Virus record (IMG/VR): IMGVR_UViG_3300045580_000523
Coordinates: 1 to 26,176 of that record
Reading direction: 5' to 3' (one strand)
Source: a virus
Taxonomy: Duplodnaviria; Caudoviricetes
DNA: 26,176 bases
Shown: piece after piece, positions 1-25,786 of the stretch
Numbering within the stretch: position 1 is the stretch's first letter
Layout of the letters: the number at the start of each line of letters is the position of its first letter
Position numbers and translations under genes: made by a program
The notes under the pieces: model-generated
Told to the model about the DNA's origin: nothing
Database searches by the model: none
The model's input: only the letters and a program-made list of their open reading frames with translations

Positions 1-3000
1 GGCGGGATGCTCGGCATGGCCGGCAAGGCGATTCCGATCCTGGGGCAGCTGGGCCTGGCCGCTACCGGCGTGCAGGCGATCTTCGGGGGACTGCAGGGAG
101 CGGTCAACGCCGTGCTGGCCCCGCTGCAGCAGCTCTCGGCTGAGGCCGGCCGGCTGAACAAGCAGGTGGCAGAAGCGGGGATTTTCGCGGCGCAGAGCTT
201 CGCGATCCTCGGGCCTGATGGAAAGCTGGTGGAGGGCACCGCCCGCCAGATGCAGATGGTGCGCGGCGCAATCCTGAAGGAATACAAGGGAATTCAGCAG
301 GAGGTGGCCAACATCAGCGGTGCCACTGCCAGCGAGATCTACGACGGCTTCAATATCATCCTTGAGAACATCAGCAGCCTTGGCGAGAAAGGCACGCTGG
401 AGAACTCCGCCAAACTGGCCACCAGGATGGCGGCCGGGATGAACACTCTCGGCATTCCTGGCTATCAACTGCGGCAGGAAGTGAATGCGCTGATGATGGG
501 CAACATCGATCGCAACGCGATGATGGCCACCAAGCTGGGCATCACCAACGAGGACTTTAAGCGCGAGACGTCGCAAGGAACCTATAACGACTTCCTGATG
601 AAGAAGTTGGAGAAGCTCTACGAGGGCCAGAAGGTGCTGGCGCTGAGCCTGGCGAACGTCATGAGCAACTTCGACGATGTGAACCAGGCGATCGCTTCGG
701 AATCGGGCCAGCCGCTGGAGCGGGACACCGCTCAGATGATGCAGACGATCCTGGTGACGTTCAAGAACCTGCAGGGCAGCTTCACCGGGTTCTTCAAGAG
801 CATCGCCGAGGCGGTGGGGCCGATCATCAAGATGCTCGGACCGGTCGTGTCGGTTCTCACCTCCATTGGCGCAGCAGCGTCATCGGTGGGTCGGATAATC
901 ATGGAACCGCTCGGCCTGCTCACTGCGATCTTCGGCAAATTGCTGCCTGTAGGAACAGCTGTTGCCAGGACGTTTGAGGTGATCACGAGAGTGATCCAAC
1001 TGTTGGCAGAAAGCATCGGGGCTGTGATCAACCCGATCAAGGCGCTGTTCACTGTGGATACGGACACCGCCAACGATGGCGTGAACAGTTTCTTCGACAA
1101 CATGATAAAGGGGTTGGAGGCTGCAAGCAGTGCCATCGCATCCTTCCAGAAGATGTGGTCGGGAATGATGCTGAATGTGGGCCTCGCTGGCCTGCGCGGC
1201 AGCATGAGGACGAAGGGCGCAACAGAGAAGGAAATCCAGGATGCCGAGAAGGACTACAGAGAGCGCTTCAAAACCCAGACCGGTCTGACCGAAGCTGTGG
1301 AATTGCGCAGTCTCCAGCTTGATCCGAAGGCAAAAAATTACATTGAGGAGCTGAACAACAGGCTCGGCACTGGATCGACGCGGGCTCTCAACATCTCCAA
1401 GGCTTGGGCCGACATCAAGCAGAAGGCCTACCAGAACGAGATCAAGGCGCTGGAACAGGGCCTGACCCTGATGAACAAGCAGAAGGAGCTGGCCGAGGCG
1501 ATGAGCGCGGCCGCTGCCGCCCGCCGGGCCCTGGAGGCCCGCGGCTACGAGCTGGGCGTGCAGGTGGCCGCCAGCCCGGAGGCCAAGGCCGCTGCCGAGG
1601 CCCGCCTGGCTGACCTGAAGCTCAGCCAGGAGAAGGAAGCGATCGCCGAGCGCCGGGGGATTCTCCAGACGGAGCGGGAGCTGCAGCAACGGCAGATGCA
1701 GATCCAGGAGAAGCAGATCAAGATCCAGCAGGAGCAGCTGAAGATCCAGCTGGCGGAGGCCCGTGCCGATCAGGTGCGCGTAGACGAGGCCACCAAGGCC
1801 GCCCTGAAGGCCCGGGGAAACACCAAGGTTGGCAGCCCGGAATGGCAGGGCTTCACGCGAGAACTCAATGTGTTGGCCGCTGAGCGCACCCGTAATACGA
1901 CCCGCGTCACTGGTGCGCAGAGAGCCGTGCAACTGGCCTTCGAGGCAGAAGGCCAGGTGGGGACCTTGGCGAGTCTCCAGGCGCAGGTGCTGGGTCTGCA
2001 GGAGCAGCAGCTCGACATTCAGGGCCAGTCGGCCCAGTACACCCGTGAGCAGCAGCGGCTCCTGGCCGAGATCAGCGCCGAAGAGCAGCGCATCACCAAC
2101 ACGCTCACCCGCACCACGAACGAGCAGAACCGCAAGAAGCTGGCCCTGGAGAACCAGAGCGAGGAGATCACCCGGCAGAACACGCTCCTCGAGCGGCAGA
2201 GCCGGCTGGAGAAAGCCCAGGCCGATCTGGCCACGACGCGCGCCAAGTCGGAGGTGCAGGCCGCCCAGCGCCTGGCCGAGATCCAGGAGCTGCAGGACCG
2301 GGCCCGCAGCGGCGGCGGCACCGCCTCGGTGATCGAGGCCCAGATCGCGGCGGCTGCGGCCGGCGTGAGCGGGATGGAAACGGCGGCCCAGGTGCAGGAA
2401 CGGCTGTACCAGGCCAAGGAGCAGCAGATGACCCGCGAGCACGCGCTGCAGCAGCGGCAGCTGGAGGTGCAGCAGAAGCGGGAAGAGAGCGAGCTGCGGA
2501 TCCAGCGGATCCGGTTTCAGAGCCAGCAGGTGGAAGCCACACTGCAGCGGGCGCAGATCATGGCGGACATCGCCCGGCTAACCCAGAAGCAGCGGCAGGA
2601 TGCGATCGCTCCGCAGCTGGCGGGGGCCAGCAGCGTGCCGGCGCTGGGAAGCGTGGGAGGTGGTGTGGCCCCAATCCCTGCCGGCGCCCAGACCAGCCGG
2701 ACCCGCGACCCCGATGCCGAGGCCACCGGTTGGGACATCGTGATGCCGGGCGGCCGCGGCGCCCCGGTCAGGGCCCCCGTGGCGTTGACGATCACCGGCA
2801 CTGGGTTCCAGGGCAGCGGTGCGGGAGCCAGCGGCAGGGGATACGGCAACTGGATCTCAGGAGAGTTCCAGCTGGGTGGCAAGAAATATGAGCTGTTGCT
2901 GGGCCACTTCGACCGAGTCGACGTTGCGCCTGGGATGCAGGTTCCTGTGGGCGGCCAGATCGGGACACAGGGCATCACCGGCCGCACGTTCGGCACGCAT

Positions 3001-4767
3001 GTGACCACCCATGTGAATCCCAAGGGCGGGGCCAGTGTTGCGGATGCCTGGGGAGCCCTGGACTCCATCACGAAAATCTGGGAGCGCGGGACAGCTGGCA
3101 TGGCGAGCGGCGCCACAGCTGGCGCGGGCGCGCCAACTGCCCCGACGTTGCCGCCACCGAACACGAACCCGAAGCTGCTGCGGATCATGCAGGCTGCGCG
3201 CGGCGCCGGCTTCCAGGGGGAAGACCTGATCCGGATGACAGCCGTGGCGATGGCGGAGAGCTCCGGCAACGTTCAGGCCTTCAACAACAACGCCCGCACC
3301 GGAGACCTGAGCTACGGCGCCTTCCAGGTGAACATGCGTGGCGACCTGGGGCCCGCTCGCCGGCGGCAGTTCGGCCTGCCCAACAACGAGGCCCTCTTTG
3401 ATCTGGGCACCAACGCGCGTGTGGCGAAGGCGATCTTCGACAGCCAGGGGATCAACGCCTGGGGAGCATTCCGCGATGGCCGCTTCCAGGAGTGGATGGG
3501 GCAGGCCCGAGCTGCAGCCCCCTCCGTGATGGGATCGGTTGCCGCCGCTGGCGGCGCCGTGGCGCCCAGCACCGCCCTACAGGCCCAGGCCCTGCAGCAG
3601 AGACTGACGGGCCTGGACTCCCAGGACACGCAACTGGTCAGGGCGCTGGACGAGAACACCCAGGCCATGGAAGAGCTCAAGAACATCTTCGGCCTGCAGA
3701 AGGAGAACCTCACCGAGCAGCAGCTGGCCGAGCGGGCCCAGTTCGAGTACGAGCGGGTGAAGGCCCAGCTCACGGCCCAGGTGATGAAGACGCCCGAGGG
3801 CCGGCTGGCGATCGCCACCGGGGATGCGGTGAGCAGCGGCATCAGCAGCTCCGTGTCCGGTGCCCTGCAGGCCCTGCTCAACGGTGGCGATGTGAAGCAG
3901 GCGGTGAGCAGCGCGCTGGCGCAGGCGGGGCAGTCGCTGATGCAGGCCACGCTCGATGCCTTGCTCAACCCGCTGCTGGCGCAGCTGCAGGGGGGCATCG
4001 TGAAGGCGGTCACCGGGATCGACATCCAGGGCTCGGCTCTGCAGATGGCCGCAACGGCTCAGCAGGGTGCTGCCAGCACGCTGGTGCAAGCCGCTGGGCT
4101 GCAGATCAATGCCGCCACGGCCTTGATGGCCGCGGCCGGTGCCGGCGGCGTGGATGGGGTGGGCAACACCGCCAGCTCCCTGTTTTCGCTGGCGGCCAAG
4201 ATCCCCAGCCTGATCGGTGGCTTCGCGGGGCTGAGCAGCGGGCTGGATTTTGCGGCCGGCTTCAGCAGCATCGACAGCGCCCTGCCGGATTACGCGAGCC
4301 TGCCGATGCTCACCCCCACCACTCCGGGCCGGGCCGGCGGCGGCGAGATCGAGTACGGCCTCGACTACCTGGTGGGCGAGCGGAACGCGGAGATCGTGCG
4401 CTTCAACAAGGCCGGCGGGAAGGTGTTCAGCAACCGCGCCCTCACCAAGGCGCTCGGCGTGCCGTTCCAGCGCGCCCCCGGCGGCGCCACCACCGTTGCG
4501 GAAGGTGGCGGCGATGCGATGGGCATCCCGTTCCTCAAGGCCCGGCCGGGCGGCAGCAGCGGCAGTGGTGCCGGGGCGGCCCCCATGGCGCGCTCCAGCG
4601 CTCTGCGGCTGAGCGTCGACACCCAGGTGATCAACGGCGTCGAGTACGCCACGGTGGAGCAGGTGCGGCAGGCCGCAGCGGCAGCAGCCCAGGCCGGCCG
4701 TGATTCGGTGGCCTACGACCTGCGCAACAGCCCCTCCTTCCAGCGCAGCGTGGGAATGGGCGGATGA
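1..4767 (+). CDS. Tail tape measure protein (5'-truncated) with M23-like and lytic transglycosylase domains
   Basis: Frame is open from base 1 (first ATG at 7). Long Ala/Gln/Glu-rich helical and coiled-coil protein. M23-like segment (GWDI..GAPVRAP..GYGN..GHFD..GxTG) at ~2719-3015. SLT/lysozyme-like segment (AVAMAESSG..YGAFQVN..N..AW) at ~3229-3480. C-terminal RAGGG..YLVGERNAE motif typical of siphovirus TMPs. Followed by tail-tip genes. Confidence 0.9.
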   Translation, partial: GGMLGMAGKAIPILGQLGLAATGVQAIFGGLQGAVNAVLAPLQQLSAEAGRLNKQVAEAGIFAAQSFAILGPDGKLVEGTARQMQMVRGAILKEYKGIQQEVANISGATASEIYDGFNIILENISSLGEKGTLENSAKLATRMAAGMNTLGIPGYQLRQEVNALMMGNIDRNAMMATKLGITNEDFKRETSQGTYNDFLMKKLEKLYEGQKVLALSLANVMSNFDDVNQAIASESGQPLERDTAQMMQTILVTFKNLQGSFTGFFKSIAEAVGPIIKMLGPVVSVLTSIGAAASSVGRIIMEPLGLLTAIFGKLLPVGTAVARTFEVITRVIQLLAESIGAVINPIKALFTVDTDTANDGVNSFFDNMIKGLEAASSAIASFQKMWSGMMLNVGLAGLRGSMRTKGATEKEIQDAEKDYRERFKTQTGLTEAVELRSLQLDPKAKNYIEELNNRLGTGSTRALNISKAWADIKQKAYQNEIKALEQGLTLMNKQKELAEAMSAAAAARRALEARGYELGVQVAASPEAKAAAEARLADLKLSQEKEAIAERRGILQTERELQQRQMQIQEKQIKIQQEQLKIQLAEARADQVRVDEATKAALKARGNTKVGSPEWQGFTRELNVLAAERTRNTTRVTGAQRAVQLAFEAEGQVGTLASLQAQVLGLQEQQLDIQGQSAQYTREQQRLLAEISAEEQRITNTLTRTTNEQNRKKLALENQSEEITRQNTLLERQSRLEKAQADLATTRAKSEVQAAQRLAEIQELQDRARSGGGTASVIEAQIAAAAAGVSGMETAAQVQERLYQAKEQQMTREHALQQRQLEVQQKREESELRIQRIRFQSQQVEATLQRAQIMADIARLTQKQRQDAIAPQLAGASSVPALGSVGGGVAPIPAGAQTSRTRDPDAEATGWDIVMPGGRGAPVRAPVALTITGTGFQGSGAGASGRGYGNWISGEFQLGGKKYELLLGHFDRVDVAPGMQVPVGGQIGTQGITGRTFGTHVTTHVNPKGGASVADAWGALDSITKIWERGTAGMASGATAGAGAPTAPTLPPPNTNPKLLRIMQAARGAGFQGEDLIRMTAVAMAESSGNVQAFNNNARTGDLSYGAFQVNMRGDLGPARRRQFGLPNNEALFDLGTNARVAKAIFDSQGINAWGAFRDGRFQEWMGQARAAAPSVMGSVAAAGGAVAPSTALQAQALQQRLTGLDSQDTQLVRALDENTQAMEELKNIFGLQKENLTEQQLAERAQFEYERVKAQLTAQVMKTPEGRLAIATGDAVSSGISSSVSGALQALLNGGDVKQAVSSALAQAGQSLMQATLDALLNPLLAQLQGGIVKAVTGIDIQGSALQMAATAQQGAASTLVQAAGLQINAATALMAAAGAGGVDGVGNTASSLFSLAAKIPSLIGGFAGLSSGLDFAAGFSSIDSALPDYASLPMLTPTTPGRAGGGEIEYGLDYLVGERNAEIVRFNKAGGKVFSNRALTKALGVPFQRAPGGATTVAEGGGDAMGIPFLKARPGGSSGSGAGAAPMARSSALRLSVDTQVINGVEYATVEQVRQAAAAAAQAGRDSVAYDLRNSPSFQRSVGMGG

Positions 4768-11857: not shown

Positions 11858-14800
11858 ATGGCTCGGATCACGTTCGCCAATGCCATCGCCGGCATCCTGA
11901 ATGCCTATGGCCCCGGCGGGCAGCAGCGTGCCAAGGAGCAGCTGTCTGCAGTGGTGGATGGCCTGAAACAGCTGGTTGGCGACGCCAACATCGCCTTTGG
12001 CAACACCGAACCTGCTGATCCGCTCAACAGTCCGTACATCCTGTACGTCAACCCCTACATCGGCTCTGATCGCTTCGTTGCCGGGAGCTACAACTCGTTC
12101 GAGGCCCCGGCTGGCGCGACCCCTGAAGCGATCAGTGCCGCCAAGCTCCGGCGTCTGGACAATCAGCGTCTGGTCTGCGGCTATTCACCTCAGAGGCCGT
12201 TCAAGACGCTCAACCGGGCGATCATTGAAGCCGGGATCATCACCGCCAAGAGCTACTACGAAGCCCCGCTGGGCAACAACGATCTGGTGAGCATCGTCAT
12301 CTCCCCGGGGGCGATGAATGTGCTCAACGGCGTCGGTGCCGCCCTGGTGCTCGAGTGGGAAGACGGCAAAGAACCGACGGACGCCGAGCTGCAGGCCTTC
12401 AACCCGGTGGCCACCGGCGGCATTCTGCTGCCCCGCGGCTGCAGCCTCGTTGCCGTCTCCAGCGACCTGCGCAAGACCATCCTGCGGCCCGTGTTCGTCC
12501 CCAGCCCGGCCGATGAGGCTGCCGACTGCAGCAACCGCCGCAGCATCTTCAAGGTCACTGGCACCGGTTACTACTGGGGCCTGACCTTCATGGACAAGGT
12601 GGGCAGCACCAGCTCTCACCACCTGCTGCACTGCTTCGAGTTCGCCAGCAAGGCTGAGCTCGATGAGTTCTACACCAAGATCCGCAGCGCTTTCGGGGGC
12701 GCCAACAACACCGGCGGTCTCAATCCAGCCCTGGCAGTCACCCGCAACTCTGAGTTCGAGATCGTTGGGCCCCGGCCTGCCTCTGGCAACCAGGACATCA
12801 ACACCGACACGACGATCAGCGCCAGCCCCTACATCTTCAACTGCAGCATCCGCAGCAACTACGGCCTCTGCGGCGTGTTTGCCGATGGCGCCAAACCCAC
12901 CGGCTTCCGGTCGATGGTGCTGGCGCAGTTCACCGGCGTCAGCATGCAGCGCGATCTGAGCTGCTGGCAGAAGTACATCAGCAACCAGAACCCTCTGTGG
13001 GGCAACTACTTTGCCAACTACGCCGACTACATCAACAGCGACCCCAACGATGTGCGGATGCACCCGGCTCGGCGCAGCTTTCATATCCGCGCCATCAACG
13101 ACGCGATCATGCAGGAGGTCAGCGTCTTCGCAATCGGTCATGGCATCCACCACTGGGTCCAGAGCGGCGGCGAGCTGACGATCACCAACAGCAACAGCAA
13201 CTTTGGCGGTTGCGCCGCCCTGGCCCAGGGCTACAAGAACGTCGCCTTTGCCGCGGACAGCAACTGGAACGTCGGCAGCATCCGCGTCGCCACCAACCTC
13301 GCGGACAAGCGCAACAACGTCCGCAAGGTCTACCTCGGCAACATCGCTGAGTCGACCGCCAACAACGCCACCACCATCACGCTGACCGCCCCACTGGAGG
13401 CCGGGCTCAACAACCCCAGCCAGCCGCGCATCCTGGAGCGCGACGGGTACAGCCTCCCGCCGGGCTCCTATGTCTGGGTCGAGAACCCCCGCGGGGCCGA
13501 CTACCGAGCTCAGCTGGCGAGCACCCCCTGGAGCAGCGCCAACGCCGATCGAGTCGTCGTCACCGCGGCCTTCCAGAACGAGGACGGCAACGCCCCTGGC
13601 CAGGCGATCACCAACAGCCAGGGCTTCGACACCGGCCAGACCTGGCCCGCACTTGCCGGCGCCCGTCTCTACATCCGCCGCCTGCAGGACGTCCGCACCG
13701 TCGATGAACGGCGCTACTCGCTGCGCTGCAACACCACTGCCGCCCGCTCCCGCACGCCCGTGCGCGACTACGTGCTGCAGACCACACCTGGCACTGGAGG
13801 GATCGTCAGCGGGATCCCCGACAACCAGATGCTGGTGGTGGCCGCGGCCTCCAACGTCGCGCCCCAGGGCTCCGGTGTGCAGCGCTCGGCCTCGGTGGAA
13901 CTGCGACGGGCCAATGCCGTCAACACCTGGACGAGCGGCAACCTCTACCGGCCTGGCGACACGGTCCGCTATCTCTCCAAGAGCTGGAGCTGCAAGACCC
14001 AGAACAGCGACACCACCTGGGATCCGAACAAGTGGGAGCAGGCCTACGTCCACATGGAGGAGGCCTACCGCCCCGAGGACTTCTGGAAGAACACCCAGCC
14101 GGCGATCGTCTTCGACAACGACACCGATCCTCTCGACGACACGCTGACCTGCGGTTACAACCTCGCCACGGTCTGGTCGACCGATGCCGCGATCCAGACG
14201 CAGTACCGCAGCGCCGTCGACTACCTCGGTGTCCACTCGCTGCTGGTGAGCCTCGGTTTCAGCGCCAGCAACGCCCACACGATCCTGCTGCCCAAGACGG
14301 CGGCCACCAGAGAGCGCAACCCGCAGAGCGCCCTCGATGGCATCGGTGCCCCCAGCGGTGCCGCCACCGCCTGGAACAACTGGGCGATCCAGTTCCGCCG
14401 GCCCTCCAACATCCGCCTGTTCGGCCACGCCTGGGAGTGGAGCGGCTTCCTCAACTACACCAAGAGCCTCCCGGAATACCAGCTGGACCTGGGCCCGATC
14501 AACCGGTTCACCTACTTCTTCACCAACCAGAACGGGGGAAGGGTCTACGGCAGCGGCTTCAACGAGGAGGGCTTCCTGGTCACTCCCCAGGGCCTGCAGA
14601 ACCTGGCGACCGGCACCGAGATCAGCTTCGAGGCCGTCGGTGAGGCGGAGATCCCGATCGACGAGGTCGCCTTCCCAACCAGCTTCGATCAGCTGATCGC
14701 CAACAAGCTGACGGTCAACACCGAGCTGAACCTCGGCGGCGTGGTCCGCGGGGCCCCCAGCTGGGAGGGTGGCTTTGGTGGCGTTCTGCCGGCCCTGCCG

Positions 14801-16782: not shown

Positions 16783-17081
16783 TCGGATTCCTGCTCAGAC
16801 CGCTGCTGTCGTTGCTGGTGCGGCAGATCGTCATCCTGCTACTGCAGGCCCTGGGGCGTGATCTGCGTCAGCGGCTGCCGGAGGTGTTCGCGGCGATCGA
16901 TGCCCAGGTGATCCGCGCCATCCAGCAGGGAGCTGATCAGGTGTCGATGCTGTTCACTCTGGCGGTCCAGCAGGTGGTGCACCGCGATCCCTCGACGCTG
17001 GAGCTGCGCATCCTCACGCTGCTGTTCGATCCGGCTGCCAGTGCCCGCCACGCCAAGTCCACATCTGCTGTGACGCCATGA
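16779..17081 (+). CDS. Hypothetical membrane-associated protein (lysis cassette)
   Basis: Leu-rich amphipathic N-terminus. ATGA overlaps with both neighbours. Confidence 0.6.
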   Translation: MIGFLLRPLLSLLVRQIVILLLQALGRDLRQRLPEVFAAIDAQVIRAIQQGADQVSMLFTLAVQQVVHRDPSTLELRILTLLFDPAASARHAKSTSAVTP

Positions 17082-17737
17082 ATCCGTCCCTGCTCCGCTA
17101 CGCCCTGGCCACCGTCGATGGACATCCAGGCCACAAGGCCTTCTGGTCGGCGGTGGAGGGGCTGCTCACCCATGAGCAGAGGAAACGCCTCGAGCAGGGC
17201 GGCGACATCCGCACCGCCACCTGGTTGATCCCAGCCGTCAGCCCTGCCTGGAATGCTGTGGTGACTGTGGCTCTGCCCCTGGTGAAGGAGTTCGAGGGCT
17301 GCAAGCTCACTGCCTACCCCGATCCTGAGACAGGCGGCGAGCCGTGGACGATCGGCTGGGGCAGCACACGGCATGCCGATGGCCGCCCGGTGCGCCGCGG
17401 CGACACGATCAGCCAGGCCCAGGCTGATGCGCTGCTGGTGGCCCGTCTGGAGCGTGATGCGCAGGCCTTGGCCAGTCGCATCACGGGATGGGGAGGCCTG
17501 AGCATCAACCAGCAGGCGGCCCTGCTCTCGTTCACCTACAACTGCGGCACGCACTGGTATGGCAGTGAGGGCTTTGCCACCCTCACCCGTTGCCTGCAGC
17601 GCGGGCTGCAGAACGATGCCCAGGAACTGTCGAAGGTGCCGGGCGCCTTGATGCTCTACGTGAATCCGGGCGGGCCCAGCGAGGCAGGCCTGCGGCGGCG
17701 CCGCAAGGCGGAAGGGGCGCTCTGGAGCGCTCAGTAG
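17078..17737 (+). CDS. Endolysin, GH24 phage lysozyme
   Basis: KEFEGC.L.AYPD....WTIGWGST (E-D-T triad), Q.AALLSF.YN.G, GL.RRR.AE..LW. Has a ~60-aa N-terminal extension. Confidence 0.95.
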   Translation: MNPSLLRYALATVDGHPGHKAFWSAVEGLLTHEQRKRLEQGGDIRTATWLIPAVSPAWNAVVTVALPLVKEFEGCKLTAYPDPETGGEPWTIGWGSTRHADGRPVRRGDTISQAQADALLVARLERDAQALASRITGWGGLSINQQAALLSFTYNCGTHWYGSEGFATLTRCLQRGLQNDAQELSKVPGALMLYVNPGGPSEAGLRRRRKAEGALWSAQ

Positions 17738-18534
17738 GGCCAGATCGCCGCCGGCCGCACCCCACCGCTCGGCACAAAGCGACCGCCGTCGCGGCGATCA
17801 ATGTGGATGAAGCCGCGGTTGCGGCCGTCCCCGAAGCCACCGGTCCAGCGGGTGATCAGGAAGTCGTAGAGGGCCTGCAGGGGCAGGCCGACCGGATAGA
17901 GATCGACGGCCAGGCCGCTGACATGAAAGCTGTTGGGCACGCCGCCAACCTCGCGATTGATGGGCTCGGGCCGGAAGAAGCTCGTCACCCCCAGCGGGCG
18001 GCCCCAGGCCTGACGGATGGCCTGGAACTCCCGGGCGGTCTCCAGGATGCGGGGCACCACAGCGCTCTGAGCCGTAGGCCGCCGGCGTGCGTCGAACTGC
18101 AGCACCTCGCCCACGGTGAGGTTGGGGGTGATGAAGGCACCGAAGTCGCTCCAGTCGATCTCCTCTGCCACGACATGCGCAACGGCTGCGGGAAGCACCA
18201 ACGCGGCTGCCTGCAGGCCCGCTGGTGCCACCCCCTGCAGTCGCTTGAAGTGGGGCATGAAAGCGTGCCACGTGCCGGCGCCGCCGCCCAGCTCCACCAG
18301 CTCGTGGGCGTTGCCCTGAATCTCCCTGGTGGCCACCACACCCAGCTGCTTGCCGGCTGGCACCAGCACCTTCTCATCGTCGGGCAGCTCAGCTGCAGGA
18401 TCGGTCGACTTCTTGAGCCAGGTGTCCTGCACCGCCTGCAGCGAGAAGATCACCGGCTTCTGCAAGGCCGCGGCCGACTTGCTGTCAGCGGCCGGGGATG
18501 AGGCCTGGTCCGCCGTGTTGCTGCCCTTGGTCAT
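17731..18534 (-). CDS. Peptidase M15A (Zn D-Ala-D-Ala carboxypeptidase-like) with N-terminal putative cell-wall-binding domain
   Basis: TS.FRP...N..VGG..NS.H..G.AVD and GFIHID motifs. N-terminal DTWLKKS...LPDDEK..V..G...H..V.L..W module of the type seen in cyanobacterial cell-wall enzymes. Confidence 0.9.
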   Translation of the reverse strand: MTKGSNTADQASSPAADSKSAAALQKPVIFSLQAVQDTWLKKSTDPAAELPDDEKVLVPAGKQLGVVATREIQGNAHELVELGGGAGTWHAFMPHFKRLQGVAPAGLQAAALVLPAAVAHVVAEEIDWSDFGAFITPNLTVGEVLQFDARRRPTAQSAVVPRILETAREFQAIRQAWGRPLGVTSFFRPEPINREVGGVPNSFHVSGLAVDLYPVGLPLQALYDFLITRWTGGFGDGRNRGFIHIDRRDGGRFVPSGGVRPAAIWPY

Positions 18535-21796: not shown

Positions 21797-22762
21797 TCAT
21801 GGCGTGGCCGGTCCGGCGGTGGCTGTTGGCTTGGCGGCCAGAAGCCGTTCCTCGATCTCCTGGAACCACTGCGGGGTGATGGCTGGATCCATCAGCTCCT
21901 GCTCCAGGGCCGCGCGCTCTTCCTTGCTGAGCCACCCTGGCGGCGGCCCCTGGCGCGTTGTTGCGGCTGGCCGTGCGGTGGCATCAACAACCCGGCGTGG
22001 GGGGTTGGCCATCGGGCGCTCGCCACTGGGTCGTGGCGGCGCTGCAGTCGGCCGTGTTCCAGAAGCGCGTGCAGGTGAGGTCTCGGCGCTGGAGTTGAAA
22101 TCGTCCTCTCGCTCAGCGGCCAGGCCAAGCACCATCTGCAGCGCCAGTCGGCGGCAGGTGGTGAGGCCGGCGGCATGGGCCTGGCCGCGGCGATCGCTCT
22201 CACCCACAAAGAGCGGCACCGGTCCGCTGCTGATCGCGCCACCGCTGGAATGCACCAGGTAGGCGGTCACGATCGGGTGGCCGTTGTCGTCGAACTCCTG
22301 TCTGGTGAGCGCACAGAGCCCATGCGCAGCAGCGCTCTGGGCTGCGGAAATCACTTCTGCCAGATCGGCATAGCCATAACTGATCGTCTGGCCTTTTCTA
22401 GTCACATATTCAGCCGAACGGTTCTCCTGCAGCTTGGGCTCAGTCGCATGCCAGGCTGCATAGGCAGTGAACAGTTCAATCTGCTGTTCTGGACTGGGCC
22501 CATAGCCCAGAAACTCTCTCAAACGGCGGGCGGGATCATCTGGGATGGAGGAGCCAACACCACGTTGTTGTGCTTCGAGACGGCTGCGGAGATCGGCAAA
22601 GGCCGCTCGCATGCTCTCGAATCGGTTTGCAGTGTCTGCCTCAGCAGCAGCCAGCCGATCCGCCAGGTCGAGCACGGTCTGGGTGATCGGATCACTGGCT
22701 GTGGGCAGGGGCTGCGGCGGCGCCTGGCCAGCTGGCGGCCCCGTGGGCGGAATGCTGTCCAT
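21797..22762 (-). CDS. erf: ERF-family single-strand annealing recombinase
   Basis: Y.YADL..V, L.HSSG, Q....LT..RR.AL...LGL..E.EDD ERF signature. N-terminal coiled-coil extension and Pro/Arg-rich C-terminal linker. Confidence 0.85.
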   Translation of the reverse strand: MDSIPPTGPPAGQAPPQPLPTASDPITQTVLDLADRLAAAEADTANRFESMRAAFADLRSRLEAQQRGVGSSIPDDPARRLREFLGYGPSPEQQIELFTAYAAWHATEPKLQENRSAEYVTRKGQTISYGYADLAEVISAAQSAAAHGLCALTRQEFDDNGHPIVTAYLVHSSGGAISSGPVPLFVGESDRRGQAHAAGLTTCRRLALQMVLGLAAEREDDFNSSAETSPARASGTRPTAAPPRPSGERPMANPPRRVVDATARPAATTRQGPPPGWLSKEERAALEQELMDPAITPQWFQEIEERLLAAKPTATAGPATP

Positions 22763-22820
22763 CACGAACGTTGCTGGTTGGGTTGGGCGCGGCCTGGCTA
22801 CGCTCCGCCAGGCCGGCCAC

Positions 22821-22834
22821 CGAACACTAGCACT
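22821..22834 (-). promoter_or_regulatory. Putative LexA box / operator 1
   Basis: AGTGCTAGTGTTCG, one mismatch to the cyanobacterial RGTACNNNDGTWCB consensus. Lies between the divergent erf and 22850 genes and contains the -10-like TAGTGT. Confidence 0.5.
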
Positions 22835-22849
22835 AATCACCAGATCGGA

Positions 22850-23122
22850 ATGACCCTGACCAGCAACGCCACCAGCTCAGTCCCGGACGGCCCTCCCCTG
22901 CTCACCATGGCCCGTTCCGGCACTGTGCTCCACGTCACGGTTCTTCATGCAGCGGCAGCCGATCTGCTGTGGCAGCACCGGCAACAGCTCACGAAGATCC
23001 ACAACTGCCTGAGCCTGCGGCTGTGCGTGCTGAACCCTGCTCAGCCTGATGGCAGCGCAACCGAAGTGGAGTGGCAGCGTCCCCAGATGGTCCGCAGGTC
23101 CATCAGCGGGCGTCGCCGCTGA
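22850..23122 (+). CDS. Hypothetical 90-aa protein (candidate antirepressor)
   Basis: ATG 22850 in frame with ORF 22175..23122. Lone plus-strand gene between erf and the repressor, convergent with the repressor (20-nt overlap). Confidence 0.5.
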   Translation: MTLTSNATSSVPDGPPLLTMARSGTVLHVTVLHAAAADLLWQHRQQLTKIHNCLSLRLCVLNPAQPDGSATEVEWQRPQMVRRSISGRRR

Positions 23123-24050
23123 TGTCTCGCACCACGGCAGGGATCACCGCTGATGCAGCGGCCTGCCGTCCGGCGATCTGCTCCAGCTCCTTGGGTTCGG
23201 CGTGATCCCTGAGCCGTTGCAGGAGCACCAGGCAGGCGGCGCGTTCATCGTCCTCCTGCTGCGCATCCCACTGGGCGATACCCCGCAGCACCTGCTGCAG
23301 GCGCTCGAGTCGGCCCTTGTCGTTGCTGGGGTAGAGCTCAGCAATCAGCGCCCAGTCGTCGATGATGTCCAGACCGGCCGCGGCGGCGGCGGCGCGCAGC
23401 TGTCGCGCCGGCACGCCGCTCTCCAATGCCCCTGAGCTGGTGGGTTCGCCGGGCCAGGGAGGGGGCACCAGCAGTCCACCAGCGATCGACAGCAGCTCTT
23501 CCGGCCCGTAGGGGCCTTGCTGGTCACTGATGACGGTCGCCTTTTTCACGAGCTCACTGAGCCGGGGCTCGCGGGGCGGATCGGCTTCACCGGCCTGCAC
23601 CTTGGCGACCCATTCGTTCAGCCGGCCCATCTCCAGCAGAAACGTGACCGTCAGGCTGGCCCGGCGCTTGCGCAGGTACAGGTTGAGGCCTGACGCATGC
23701 AGGCGACTGGTGAGCCCCTGATCGATCCAGCCGTCGGCTCCCTCCGCAGGCTCTGACGAGGGCGTGCCAACCGCTTCCCAGGCATGCCCCTTGTGGTTCA
23801 CCCAGCTGCCAGATGTCAGTGGCATGCCAGCGGACCAATCCGGCACCGGGTCTTTCGACTCGGCGAGCAGCGACAGCTCCGCCAGGCGTGAGACCACGGC
23901 CAGGCTCCAGCCGTTGCGTTGAAGCCACTGCTCGAGCAGGAGGCGCAACCGCTCACGGCCGATCGCTTCTGCATGCAGCCAGTGCACCGACTGAGAAGCG
24001 AGAACAGGGCCAGACGGCACCGGGGTGCGCTGGTTTTGCTGCTGAGCCAT
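23103..24050 (-). CDS. Repressor-like XRE-HTH protein with inserted CBM5/12-like module
   Basis: ATG 24050 with AGAGGT upstream (alternative ATG 24101). GR..L..LL..W..RNGWS..V.SRLA (helices 1-2) and LHASGLNLYLR.R......F..EMG.LN (helix 3 onward) flank a ~45-aa Trp-containing insert. Divergent from rep. Confidence 0.6.
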   Translation of the reverse strand: MAQQQNQRTPVPSGPVLASQSVHWLHAEAIGRERLRLLLEQWLQRNGWSLAVVSRLAELSLLAESKDPVPDWSAGMPLTSGSWVNHKGHAWEAVGTPSSEPAEGADGWIDQGLTSRLHASGLNLYLRKRRASLTVTFLLEMGRLNEWVAKVQAGEADPPREPRLSELVKKATVISDQQGPYGPEELLSIAGGLLVPPPWPGEPTSSGALESGVPARQLRAAAAAAGLDIIDDWALIAELYPSNDKGRLERLQQVLRGIAQWDAQQEDDERAACLVLLQRLRDHAEPKELEQIAGRQAAASAVIPAVVRDISGDAR

Positions 24051-24094: not shown

Positions 24095-24108
24095 CGAACA
24101 TAAGTCCT
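24095..24108 (-). promoter_or_regulatory. Putative LexA box / operator 2
   Basis: AGGACTTATGTTCG, one mismatch to RGTACNNNDGTWCB. Adjacent to TTGACA (24110-24115, +) and overlapping the TGTTCG-N4-CGAACA inverted repeat (24085-24100). Confidence 0.5.
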
Positions 24109-24278: not shown

Positions 24279-24309
24279 ACAACAAAGGCCCCGCCTGGGA
24301 GGCGGAGCC
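24279..24309 (-). terminator. Rho-independent terminator
   Basis: GGCTCCGCCT-CCC-AGGCGGGGCC followed by TTTGTTGT. Confidence 0.65.
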
Positions 24310-24371: not shown

Positions 24372-24415
24372 ACGGTCATCTTACTGCATCCAACGCAAGC
24401 AGCAGGCCTAGGGGA

Positions 24416-25786
24416 GTGGAAGAAACCACACCAGCTTCTGCCATGCCAACCGCACCATTCAACGGCGAACTGCACCGCCCGCTGTTTGCACAGATCCCGC
24501 TGGAACTGCTGAGCAGTTCAGCTGAAAGGGGCAGAAGACGACTGGTGTTTGTTTATGCCTGGCTGTGGTTTTACGCTGGACAGAATGATAACGCCTTCCC
24601 TTCTGTTCCGCGCCTGGCGCTGGAGTGCGGCATGAAGGAACGCGACATCCGGGCAGCCCTTCAGACCCTTCTGGACGAGGGCTGGATCATCAAAGCCGGC
24701 ACCGGACCCAGAGGCACCAACGTCTATCGGGTGCGGATGGAGACAAAGCGCAAACGACCGCGCCCCAAATCCACTGCAGCAGAACGGAAGTCGGCAGCAC
24801 CCCTCCCCTACAAGGGGAGTCCCCCTGCAGGGGAGGCCCCGCAGGGGCACCCCTCCCCCTGTAGGGGAGGCCCTACAGGGGTACCCCTCCCCCACAGGGG
24901 GACTCCCCCACAGGGGGACCCAATCAATAAACCCTTAAACGAAGAGTTAGATAACCCAGAAGAGTTAATACCTATCCCAAACACATATATGTCCCAACGA
25001 GCTGAAATCAGCTCGACCGCCGCAGCCCTGGTCACAACGGCTGGCGCCGTCGCGACAGATCGGCAGATCGTGGTAACGTCAGACCAGAACGACGCTCCCC
25101 AGCGACATGCCGAACCGGCCGCCAGCGCTTCCTGCTCCCCTGCCACCGAGCAGCCCACCGCCCAGGCCGCAGGCCAGCAGGCCGGCCTGCCCGCCTGCGC
25201 CAGGCCCTATCGCCAGCTGCTGGTGGAGTGGTGGACCCGCCGCCGCCAGAAGCATCCCGCCGCTTCACGCGAGCTCAGCGCCGCGGATGTCCAGGCCATC
25301 CACCACGCCGATGCCCTTGGCGTTTTGGAGCCGTTCCTCGAGCATGCCGCGGCCAGTGGCTGCAAGTCCCTTGCCACCGGCTACCGGCGCCGCTGCGAGC
25401 AGCTGCGGGCCGGCCCTGCTGCTGCCGAGGCCTTCGAGCAGCTTCGCTCCGCCTACCTGGCCGCTCCACGTCGGGTCACCTGTCAATCCCTTCCTGCCGC
25501 CCAGCGCGAGCTGGGCGCAGTCCTGGCCGCCGGCCACACCGTCGATCAGCTGCTGGCGGCTCTCGCCGGTGAGGTCCAGGCCCAGGAGCAGCAGCAAGCC
25601 AGCACGGGCTTTGCTCCGTCCCTGCCCGACATGGCTCGCTGGCTGAAGGAGCGCCGTTTCGTGGCCTACCTGCCTCAGAACCAGCCCGCTGCTGCTGTGG
25701 CCGCGGCCAGCTTCGTCCCTCCGATCGATCCAGAAACCGGTGAGTCCGATCCCTTTGCCTACCACCGTCACATCACTGGCCGATGA
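24416..25786 (+). CDS. Replication initiator (lambda O-like, N-terminal winged HTH)
   Basis: VY..L..YAG....AFPS..RLA.ECGM..R.IR.AL..L...GWI wHTH. Internal iterons. C-terminal PDMARWL.ERRF motif. Start is GTG 24416 or ATG 24443. Confidence 0.8.
   Translation: MEETTPASAMPTAPFNGELHRPLFAQIPLELLSSSAERGRRRLVFVYAWLWFYAGQNDNAFPSVPRLALECGMKERDIRAALQTLLDEGWIIKAGTGPRGTNVYRVRMETKRKRPRPKSTAAERKSAAPLPYKGSPPAGEAPQGHPSPCRGGPTGVPLPHRGTPPQGDPINKPLNEELDNPEELIPIPNTYMSQRAEISSTAAALVTTAGAVATDRQIVVTSDQNDAPQRHAEPAASASCSPATEQPTAQAAGQQAGLPACARPYRQLLVEWWTRRRQKHPAASRELSAADVQAIHHADALGVLEPFLEHAAASGCKSLATGYRRRCEQLRAGPAAAEAFEQLRSAYLAAPRRVTCQSLPAAQRELGAVLAAGHTVDQLLAALAGEVQAQEQQQASTGFAPSLPDMARWLKERRFVAYLPQNQPAAAVAAASFVPPIDPETGESDPFAYHRHITGR
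24797..24990 (+). repeat. Replication-origin iterons plus AT-rich tract
   Basis: Seven quasi-palindromic CCC(C)-N3-5-GGGG units starting at about 24805, 24821, 24837, 24855, 24871, 24889 and 24905. These are followed by an AT-rich stretch with GAAGAGTTA twice. Confidence 0.75.

Follow-up and report, generated by a model that had tools for sequence, protein, structure and literature searches.

The window analysed here, the whole stretch of 26,176 nucleotides of a Caudoviricetes record (IMGVR_UViG_3300045580_000523), carries siphophage tail, lysis and early-region genes according to Pfam and PHROG annotation. Two close relatives of the phage are binned in Cyanobium MAGs. The tape measure protein (7-4767) carries M23 peptidase and lysozyme-like domains, and convergent lysozyme and M15 peptidase genes occupy 17078-18534. 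A regulator gene is divergent from the replication initiator gene rep and is followed by a small convergent gene, x, and by erf. The features are as follows.

13928..14035, plus strand: CBM5/12-like motif in the tail fibre
21797..22765, minus strand: erf, ERF single-strand annealing protein, downstream of the regulator (Pfam ERF, E 2e-7; PHROG 2324)
22821..22834, minus strand: LexA-type box in the gap between x and erf, whose starts diverge
22850..23122, plus strand: gene x, 90 aa, convergent with the regulator; candidate antirepressor or partner
23103..24050, minus strand: regulator gene P0001, 315 aa, predicted tandem XRE-like folds with a nested CBM5/12-like module
23208..23423, minus strand: predicted second, C-terminal XRE-like domain, residues ~210-281
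23457..23699, minus strand: remainder of the predicted N-terminal XRE domain, residues 118-198, with predicted recognition helix (119-126), helix 4 and helix 5
23715..23849, minus strand: insert of CBM5/12 (ChtBD3) fold in the model, residues 68-112, replacing the HTH turn (alignment gap 62-111)
23865..23984, minus strand: helices 1-2 of the predicted N-terminal XRE domain, residues 23-62 (AF2 helices 23-46 and 50-62), aligned to XRE structures
24095..24108, minus strand: LexA-type box 58 nt before the regulator start, differing by one base from a box in PMC3091678
24279..24383, minus strand: conserved structured RNA of ~92 nt, antisense to the rep leader, with a -10-like hexamer (24378-24383), a long stem, a GGGG-loop hairpin, a GNRA hairpin and a terminator (24287-24309)
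24416..25786, plus strand: rep, replication initiator, divergent from the regulator (Pfam HTH_36; PHROG replication initiation)

The regulator is predicted to be a DNA-binding protein of tandem-XRE type. As a whole it has no family match in Pfam, PHROG or NCBIfam, where the HTH_3, HTH_26 and HTH_31 profiles also leave it unmatched, and profile searches of PDB sequences return nothing significant. The AF2 model has a mean pLDDT of 79.5, with about 90 over residues 31-190 and 89-95 over residues 61-120. Residues 23-198 of this model, with the insert skipped, align by VIA to XRE regulators (2ofy, Z 6.5, rmsd 3.1, 80/80 aligned). The C-terminal domain, overlooked in the original prediction for this locus, is a second XRE-like fold (Aca10, Z 5.4, rmsd 2.3, 56 aligned) with no Pfam match, and a peptidase S24 autocleavage domain is absent from the protein. 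A model of an insert-free homologue (pLDDT 92) likewise comprises two XRE-like domains, residues 11-135 (2ofy, Z 8.1) and 144-237 (5woq, Z 6.4), the second of which also matches C.Esp1396I (Z 5.9) and lambda repressor (Z 5.3). Foldseek gives no match to this model at E<=0.001; for an insert-free member the ESM Atlas provides HTH_31 clusters at 0.89-0.91, as a lead only. Both models contain the five-helix lambda-repressor-like fold with an HTH at helices 2-3. The Z-scores are modest, in a range of 5-8 that by the tool's own warning is possibly common for helical folds; the XRE case rests on full-domain coverage and on match lists dominated by one fold.

A module with a CBM5/12-like pattern between two XRE helices was originally proposed from the sequence of the window. 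The module does lie in frame between the helices named there, and AF2, Foldseek and VIA together place a CBM5/12-like fold in the HTH turn. By VIA, model residues 60-114 align to the CBM5/12 structures SmChiB (Z 7.3, rmsd 2.7, 49 aligned) and 2d49 (Z 6.3). The same two structures are the top Foldseek matches of the insert (rmsd 1.7-2.3, but E>0.001), and both tools recover the ski-boot beta fold with its core aromatics in the model. At the sequence level the isolated insert reaches E=0.016 against Pfam CBM_5_12, below cut-off: it scores 15.7 bits where the gathering score of PF02839 is 26.2, and the best distant member scores 20.3. The profile is matched by 23/71 close homologues at E<=1 (best 0.0059) and by the distant protein P0083 at E=5.7e-4. 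A search of the open-access literature found no paper that places a CBM inside an HTH or repressor. Phage tail, baseplate and injection-system proteins contain the same fold (7eea, 9b45, 7b5h) and are a likely source class of the insert. The similar motif pointed out earlier in the tail fibre is real, but weak (Pfam E=0.085). As a direct donor of the insert it is unsupported, the insert HMM reaching it at an iE of 0.2.

Seventy-two close homologues of the regulator were found. The close alignment has 71 rows, namely 70 homologues and the query, two near-identical homologues being omitted; the insert is present in 71/71 rows (50-88% overall identity). An exhaustive search returned 22 matches: three already known, P0074 (a close member whose C-terminus is unrelated), five fragments, 11 distant proteins that retain the insert with variable loop length, and two homologues without it, P0091 and P0092. 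Homologues without the insert, which the original prediction suggested looking for, therefore exist. The insert-free set comprises 26 proteins, 40 viral loci, ORF103 of cyanophage P-SS2 and a chromosomal gene in 273/301 host-order genomes; two matches per host genome are, where checked, halves of one gene. This chromosomal gene is unannotated (L062-L092, e.g. L063:1387-2445), and in L063 it is flanked by what we take to be two fatty-acid-desaturase-like ORFs. The segment between L59 and L117 measures 57 residues in 14 close insert-bearing proteins and 57-70 in 13 distant ones, versus 5-10 in 30/31 insert-free rows, the odd row being mis-extracted. HHalign joins the insert-bearing and insert-free profiles (prob 99.7, E 6.6e-26) with a single 50-residue gap, 62-111, at the HTH turn. 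The LH[AS]S[GQ] motif within residues 118-198 is common to insert-free members, and the inspected host loci have a short turn (e.g. LAEVL-DLGR-IHxSQ), except three insert-bearing ones. Among isolated phage genomes, tblastn with P0001 and P0082 finds no match, and with insert-free queries P-SS2 only (from P0092, E 3e-10). The regulator is assigned to an unannotated picocyanobacterial and cyanophage family with predicted tandem XRE folds.

In trees built from the core alignment without insert columns, with two long or mis-extracted host rows omitted, one branch separates insert-bearing from insert-free proteins (16 versus 13 rows, UFBoot 100, SH-aLRT 99). In a larger tree of 27 versus 29 rows the insert-bearing branch has an SH-aLRT of 98, and none of its 27 proteins has lost the insert. 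Two trees that split the insert group gave AU p-values of 0.036 and 0.056, from too few replicates. A single origin is favoured, not proven. Because canonical XRE turns are short, a single gain is the simplest reading of these unrooted trees. A lone insert-bearing member lies in a host chromosome (G077:C61:36590-37462), presumably between carotenoid genes and a hydrolase, and phage reference genes are unmatched in bases 1-59999 there; it is possibly a captured repressor giving immunity.

The insert is under purifying selection, with a pN/pS of 0.32 (uncorrected, 10 sequences) and a column identity of 0.69, against 0.59-0.76 for the rest of the protein. W72, G81, H86, G88, H89, W91, E100, P101 and W108 are invariant in 71/71 close rows. 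The module is acidic in 14/14 close members and its variable loop is clade-specific; a role as an extra DNA-binding wing is unlikely in this acidic close clade. After one insertion the module might have persisted as a passenger, or as a self-association or stability element, binding neither ligand nor partner, and we regard this as possible, if on the doubtful side. The 13 distant members keep mainly fold-core residues (G81 and W91 in 13/13, W108 in 12/13, G88 in 9-10/13), their loop is free in length and varied in charge, the same fold serves in the structural phage and injection-system proteins mentioned above, and insert-free members fill the same genomic slot as the regulator. Several surface-looking residues speak against a passenger, however: A74, G75, M76, H86, H89, E100 and P101 are all invariant in the close members, and H89 is kept in 9/13 distant ones. 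So does the absence of any loss on the insert branch.

The gene order around the regulator is constant. In close viral loci rep is divergent from it in 16/16 and erf stands behind it in 15/16 (one contig ends), and distant insert-bearing phages keep the order int...rep / regulator / x / erf; the integrase-like gene lies at a distance of about 4 kb there (L128-L132). It is this conserved position, together with the fold, that argues for a phage repressor, as the regulator had been called at the outset. ORF103 of P-SS2 (ACT65665.1; L017:8938-9678; GQ334450.1:92216-92956), which is insert-free, is divergent from the helicase/primase arm and lies directly before bet and int. Sullivan et al. (PMC2784084) describe P-SS2 as having no identifiable repressor, and ORF103 is a candidate for it. 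The integrative element at G189:C41 (8235-13659) has an insert-free member as its divergent gene and also encodes an integrase; its other genes we take to be type I restriction-like genes, a long divergent ORF and a small gene that resembles those for excisionases. An integrase is present in 5/5 complete insert-free phages and in 2/5 close relatives of the window phage (2/4 near-complete), as sought by protein queries, the Pfam integrase model having overlooked a 77-80% identical copy.

Other repressor candidates occur in the same genomes. A small XRE protein is 90-94% identical in three complete relatives. In 5/5 relatives a protein with a LexA DBD only, without the protease domain, is encoded behind a sigma factor gene (G303:C1:14758-14946; L109-L113), and in G303 a LexA-type box precedes it. 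Either protein could be the true repressor. The relative G303 also encodes a reverse transcriptase and bAvd of a diversity-generating retroelement (C1:64723-66449), the reverse transcriptase not being found in G305 or G306, and its head-morphogenesis protein has an intein-like domain. In metatranscriptome contigs 23461-24039 is covered, as are parts of x, erf and rep; transcription, strand and level are not readable from them.

Gene x lies beside the regulator in 24/24 insert-bearing phage loci with a downstream flank, several of them near-duplicates (L001-L007, L009-L016, L018 (split), L019 and L126-L132). It was found in 0/41 insert-free viral loci and in no host locus, not even at the chromosomal copy in G077 that bears the insert. 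The protein has no PHROG family and shows similarity (E 2e-10) to the central part of a KilA-N protein of G303. Since x and the insert occur together on only one branch, their association counts as one event and not as independent co-evolution. The original prediction had allowed for a partner protein acting through the module, and x is a concrete candidate for it.

The antisense RNA at the rep leader is conserved in structure. In 12 sequences, 97.7% of cells in the long stem are paired, with compensatory change in three pairs, and the GNRA loop is kept in 12/12, in four variants. Rfam has no family here at E<=5 except a weak P9, and the metatranscriptome contigs leave the region uncovered. 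Pairing is conceivable between the CCCC loop of the rep leader and the GGGGAG found where rep begins (24411-24416, plus strand), an arrangement that we take to resemble the antisense/pseudoknot copy control of plasmids. Such an RNA may fit plasmid-like prophages without integrase. Within rep, G/C-rich inverted repeats at 24790-24945, with only weak hairpin-type Rfam matches, are likely origin iterons.

The two boxes flanking the regulator and x resemble the 14-bp cyanobacterial LexA motif presented in PMC3091678, and the host recA and lexA promoters have boxes that match this motif. With a search pattern that blends the two consensuses of that source, the window gives five strand-matches versus 0.94 expected. 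The box between x and erf recurs in 14/14 close sequences (one mismatch in 11, two in three), and a box 54-64 nt before the regulator in 17/18 (nine with one mismatch, eight with two). In G305 and G306 the KilA-N gene likewise has LexA-type boxes in front of it. Intergenic palindromic operators or direct repeats are not convincing anywhere, and a sigma-70 scan found no promoter. A promoter-region pattern that P-SS2 lacks occurs in 12/23 insert-free and 9/14 insert-bearing intergenic regions, against 0.9 and 0.3 expected; it was fitted with the alignments already in view and is only a lead.

A LexA-type box ahead of the regulator itself is odd for a maintenance repressor. The regulator might instead be an SOS-induced Cro-like or activating protein, co-induced with erf, while lysogeny would depend on host LexA, on the small XRE protein and on antisense control of rep. 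This we judge unlikely, although the box is nearly constant in close sequences, other regulators and the conserved antisense RNA are at hand, half of the near-complete close relatives have no integrase, and host chromosomes contain a gene of the family. Against it, a box with at most one mismatch near the regulator, x or erf is found in 0/5 scanned distant loci, and one with one mismatch in only 3/29 insert-free loci; the cI-like position is constant, and imperfect boxes may bind weakly.

A sugar bound by the module was originally proposed as something that could gate the lysis-lysogeny switch. This idea is unsupported by the residues: the aromatic pair with which CBM5 modules bind chitin and the CBM12-type His and Trp are missing. 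A CBM12-type Trp after the His-Thr motif binds chitin, and in comparison with 3wx7 both this Trp and the His after strand 3 are absent from the insert. According to PMC8449059, CBM5s bind chitin via a nearly invariant exposed YW/WW pair, whereas the Tyr of YxxGD and the last Trp are core residues. With the register set by the offset from these core residues, not by structural alignment, the pair corresponds to positions 94-96, where G95 is found in 69/71 close rows, the five commonest residues include no aromatic, and the 13 distant members have one Trp. The insert more likely docks a protein partner than a sugar. A module that binds sugar, muropeptide or metal at H86/H89 and directly gates DNA binding is quite improbable, for although the fold lies next to the recognition helix, H86 and H89 are invariant and the non-core W83 occurs in 58/71 close members, neither aromatic arrangement is present, W83 and H86 are lost in distant members, and for binding of soluble chitohexaose intact CBM5s require about 2 mM (PMC8449059). 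Similarly improbable is its wider form, a virion-type carbohydrate-binding module grafted into the HTH turn and re-tuned through His86/His89 as a metabolite or metal sensor gating lysis-lysogeny in freshwater picocyanophages.

The reading that we tentatively prefer, while giving it rather less than an even chance, is that the regulator is a lysogeny repressor of the non-cleavable kind and that a partner, most plausibly x, docks on its grafted module, induction running via host LexA. We infer DNA binding and repression by the regulator, contact between x and the insert, and SOS induction. (i) The regulator would hold a temperate Cyanobium-type siphophage dormant by repressing the rep-side promoter. 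(ii) Its tandem XRE domains would act there as an intramolecular pseudo-dimer. (iii) DNA damage would lift repression by host LexA, so that x is made. (iv) Docking of x on the CBM5/12-fold module would pull the repressor off the rep-side promoter, leading to lysis. As the regulator has no protease domain, induction needs another trigger, and non-cleavable repressors can be induced by LexA-controlled small antirepressors (PMC3121763). The oddly placed box, the other repressor candidates, the integrase found in only two of four near-complete close relatives and the absence of boxes in distant loci weigh against this proposal.

The locus is a clean natural case in which a four-residue HTH turn has accepted a whole folded domain and long retained it, and the insert-free orthologues are matched controls for the insert. 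A repressor candidate is named for temperate picocyanobacterial siphophages such as P-SS2, and a predicted fold is now given to an unannotated gene in most picocyanobacterial genomes sampled. Gene x, the LexA-type boxes and the antisense RNA at rep are new here; with the regulator they make up a small testable circuit for prophage induction.

Several known systems provide comparisons. The insert shares with the CBM5/CBM12 (ChtBD3) modules of chitinases and phage tail proteins the fold, the core aromatics (W72, L/Y78, W91, W108) and a G-x-x-V-x-H/Y-x-G hairpin, but it lacks the exposed chitin-binding aromatics and is nested in an intracellular regulator. ORF103 of P-SS2 and the picocyanobacterial chromosomal homologues belong to the same family (HHalign 99.7%; tblastn E 3e-10) and the same slot; they differ in having neither the insert nor gene x, and are annotated only as conserved cyanobacterial protein. 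Unlike lambda cI-type repressors, the regulator has no C-terminal peptidase S24 autocleavage domain. Gifsy GfoR/GfoA (PMC3121763) is a parallel for the proposed logic, in which the repressor has no autocleavage domain and a small gene would be controlled through a LexA box. The proteins are unrelated, however, and x adjoins the regulator instead of lying outside the immunity region; the regulator here has its own LexA-type box, and binding of x to it is a proposal. XRE/Cro-C1 regulators (2ofy, C.BclI, TP901-1 CI, P22 c2, SaPI Stl) share the predicted five-helix fold, which occurs twice per chain in the regulator, and the divergent position beside a replication arm. The regulator is set apart from them by the lack of a sequence-family match, the length of its helix 1, an additional helix and a hairpin ahead of helix 5, its tandem domains and the 50-residue beta module in the turn.
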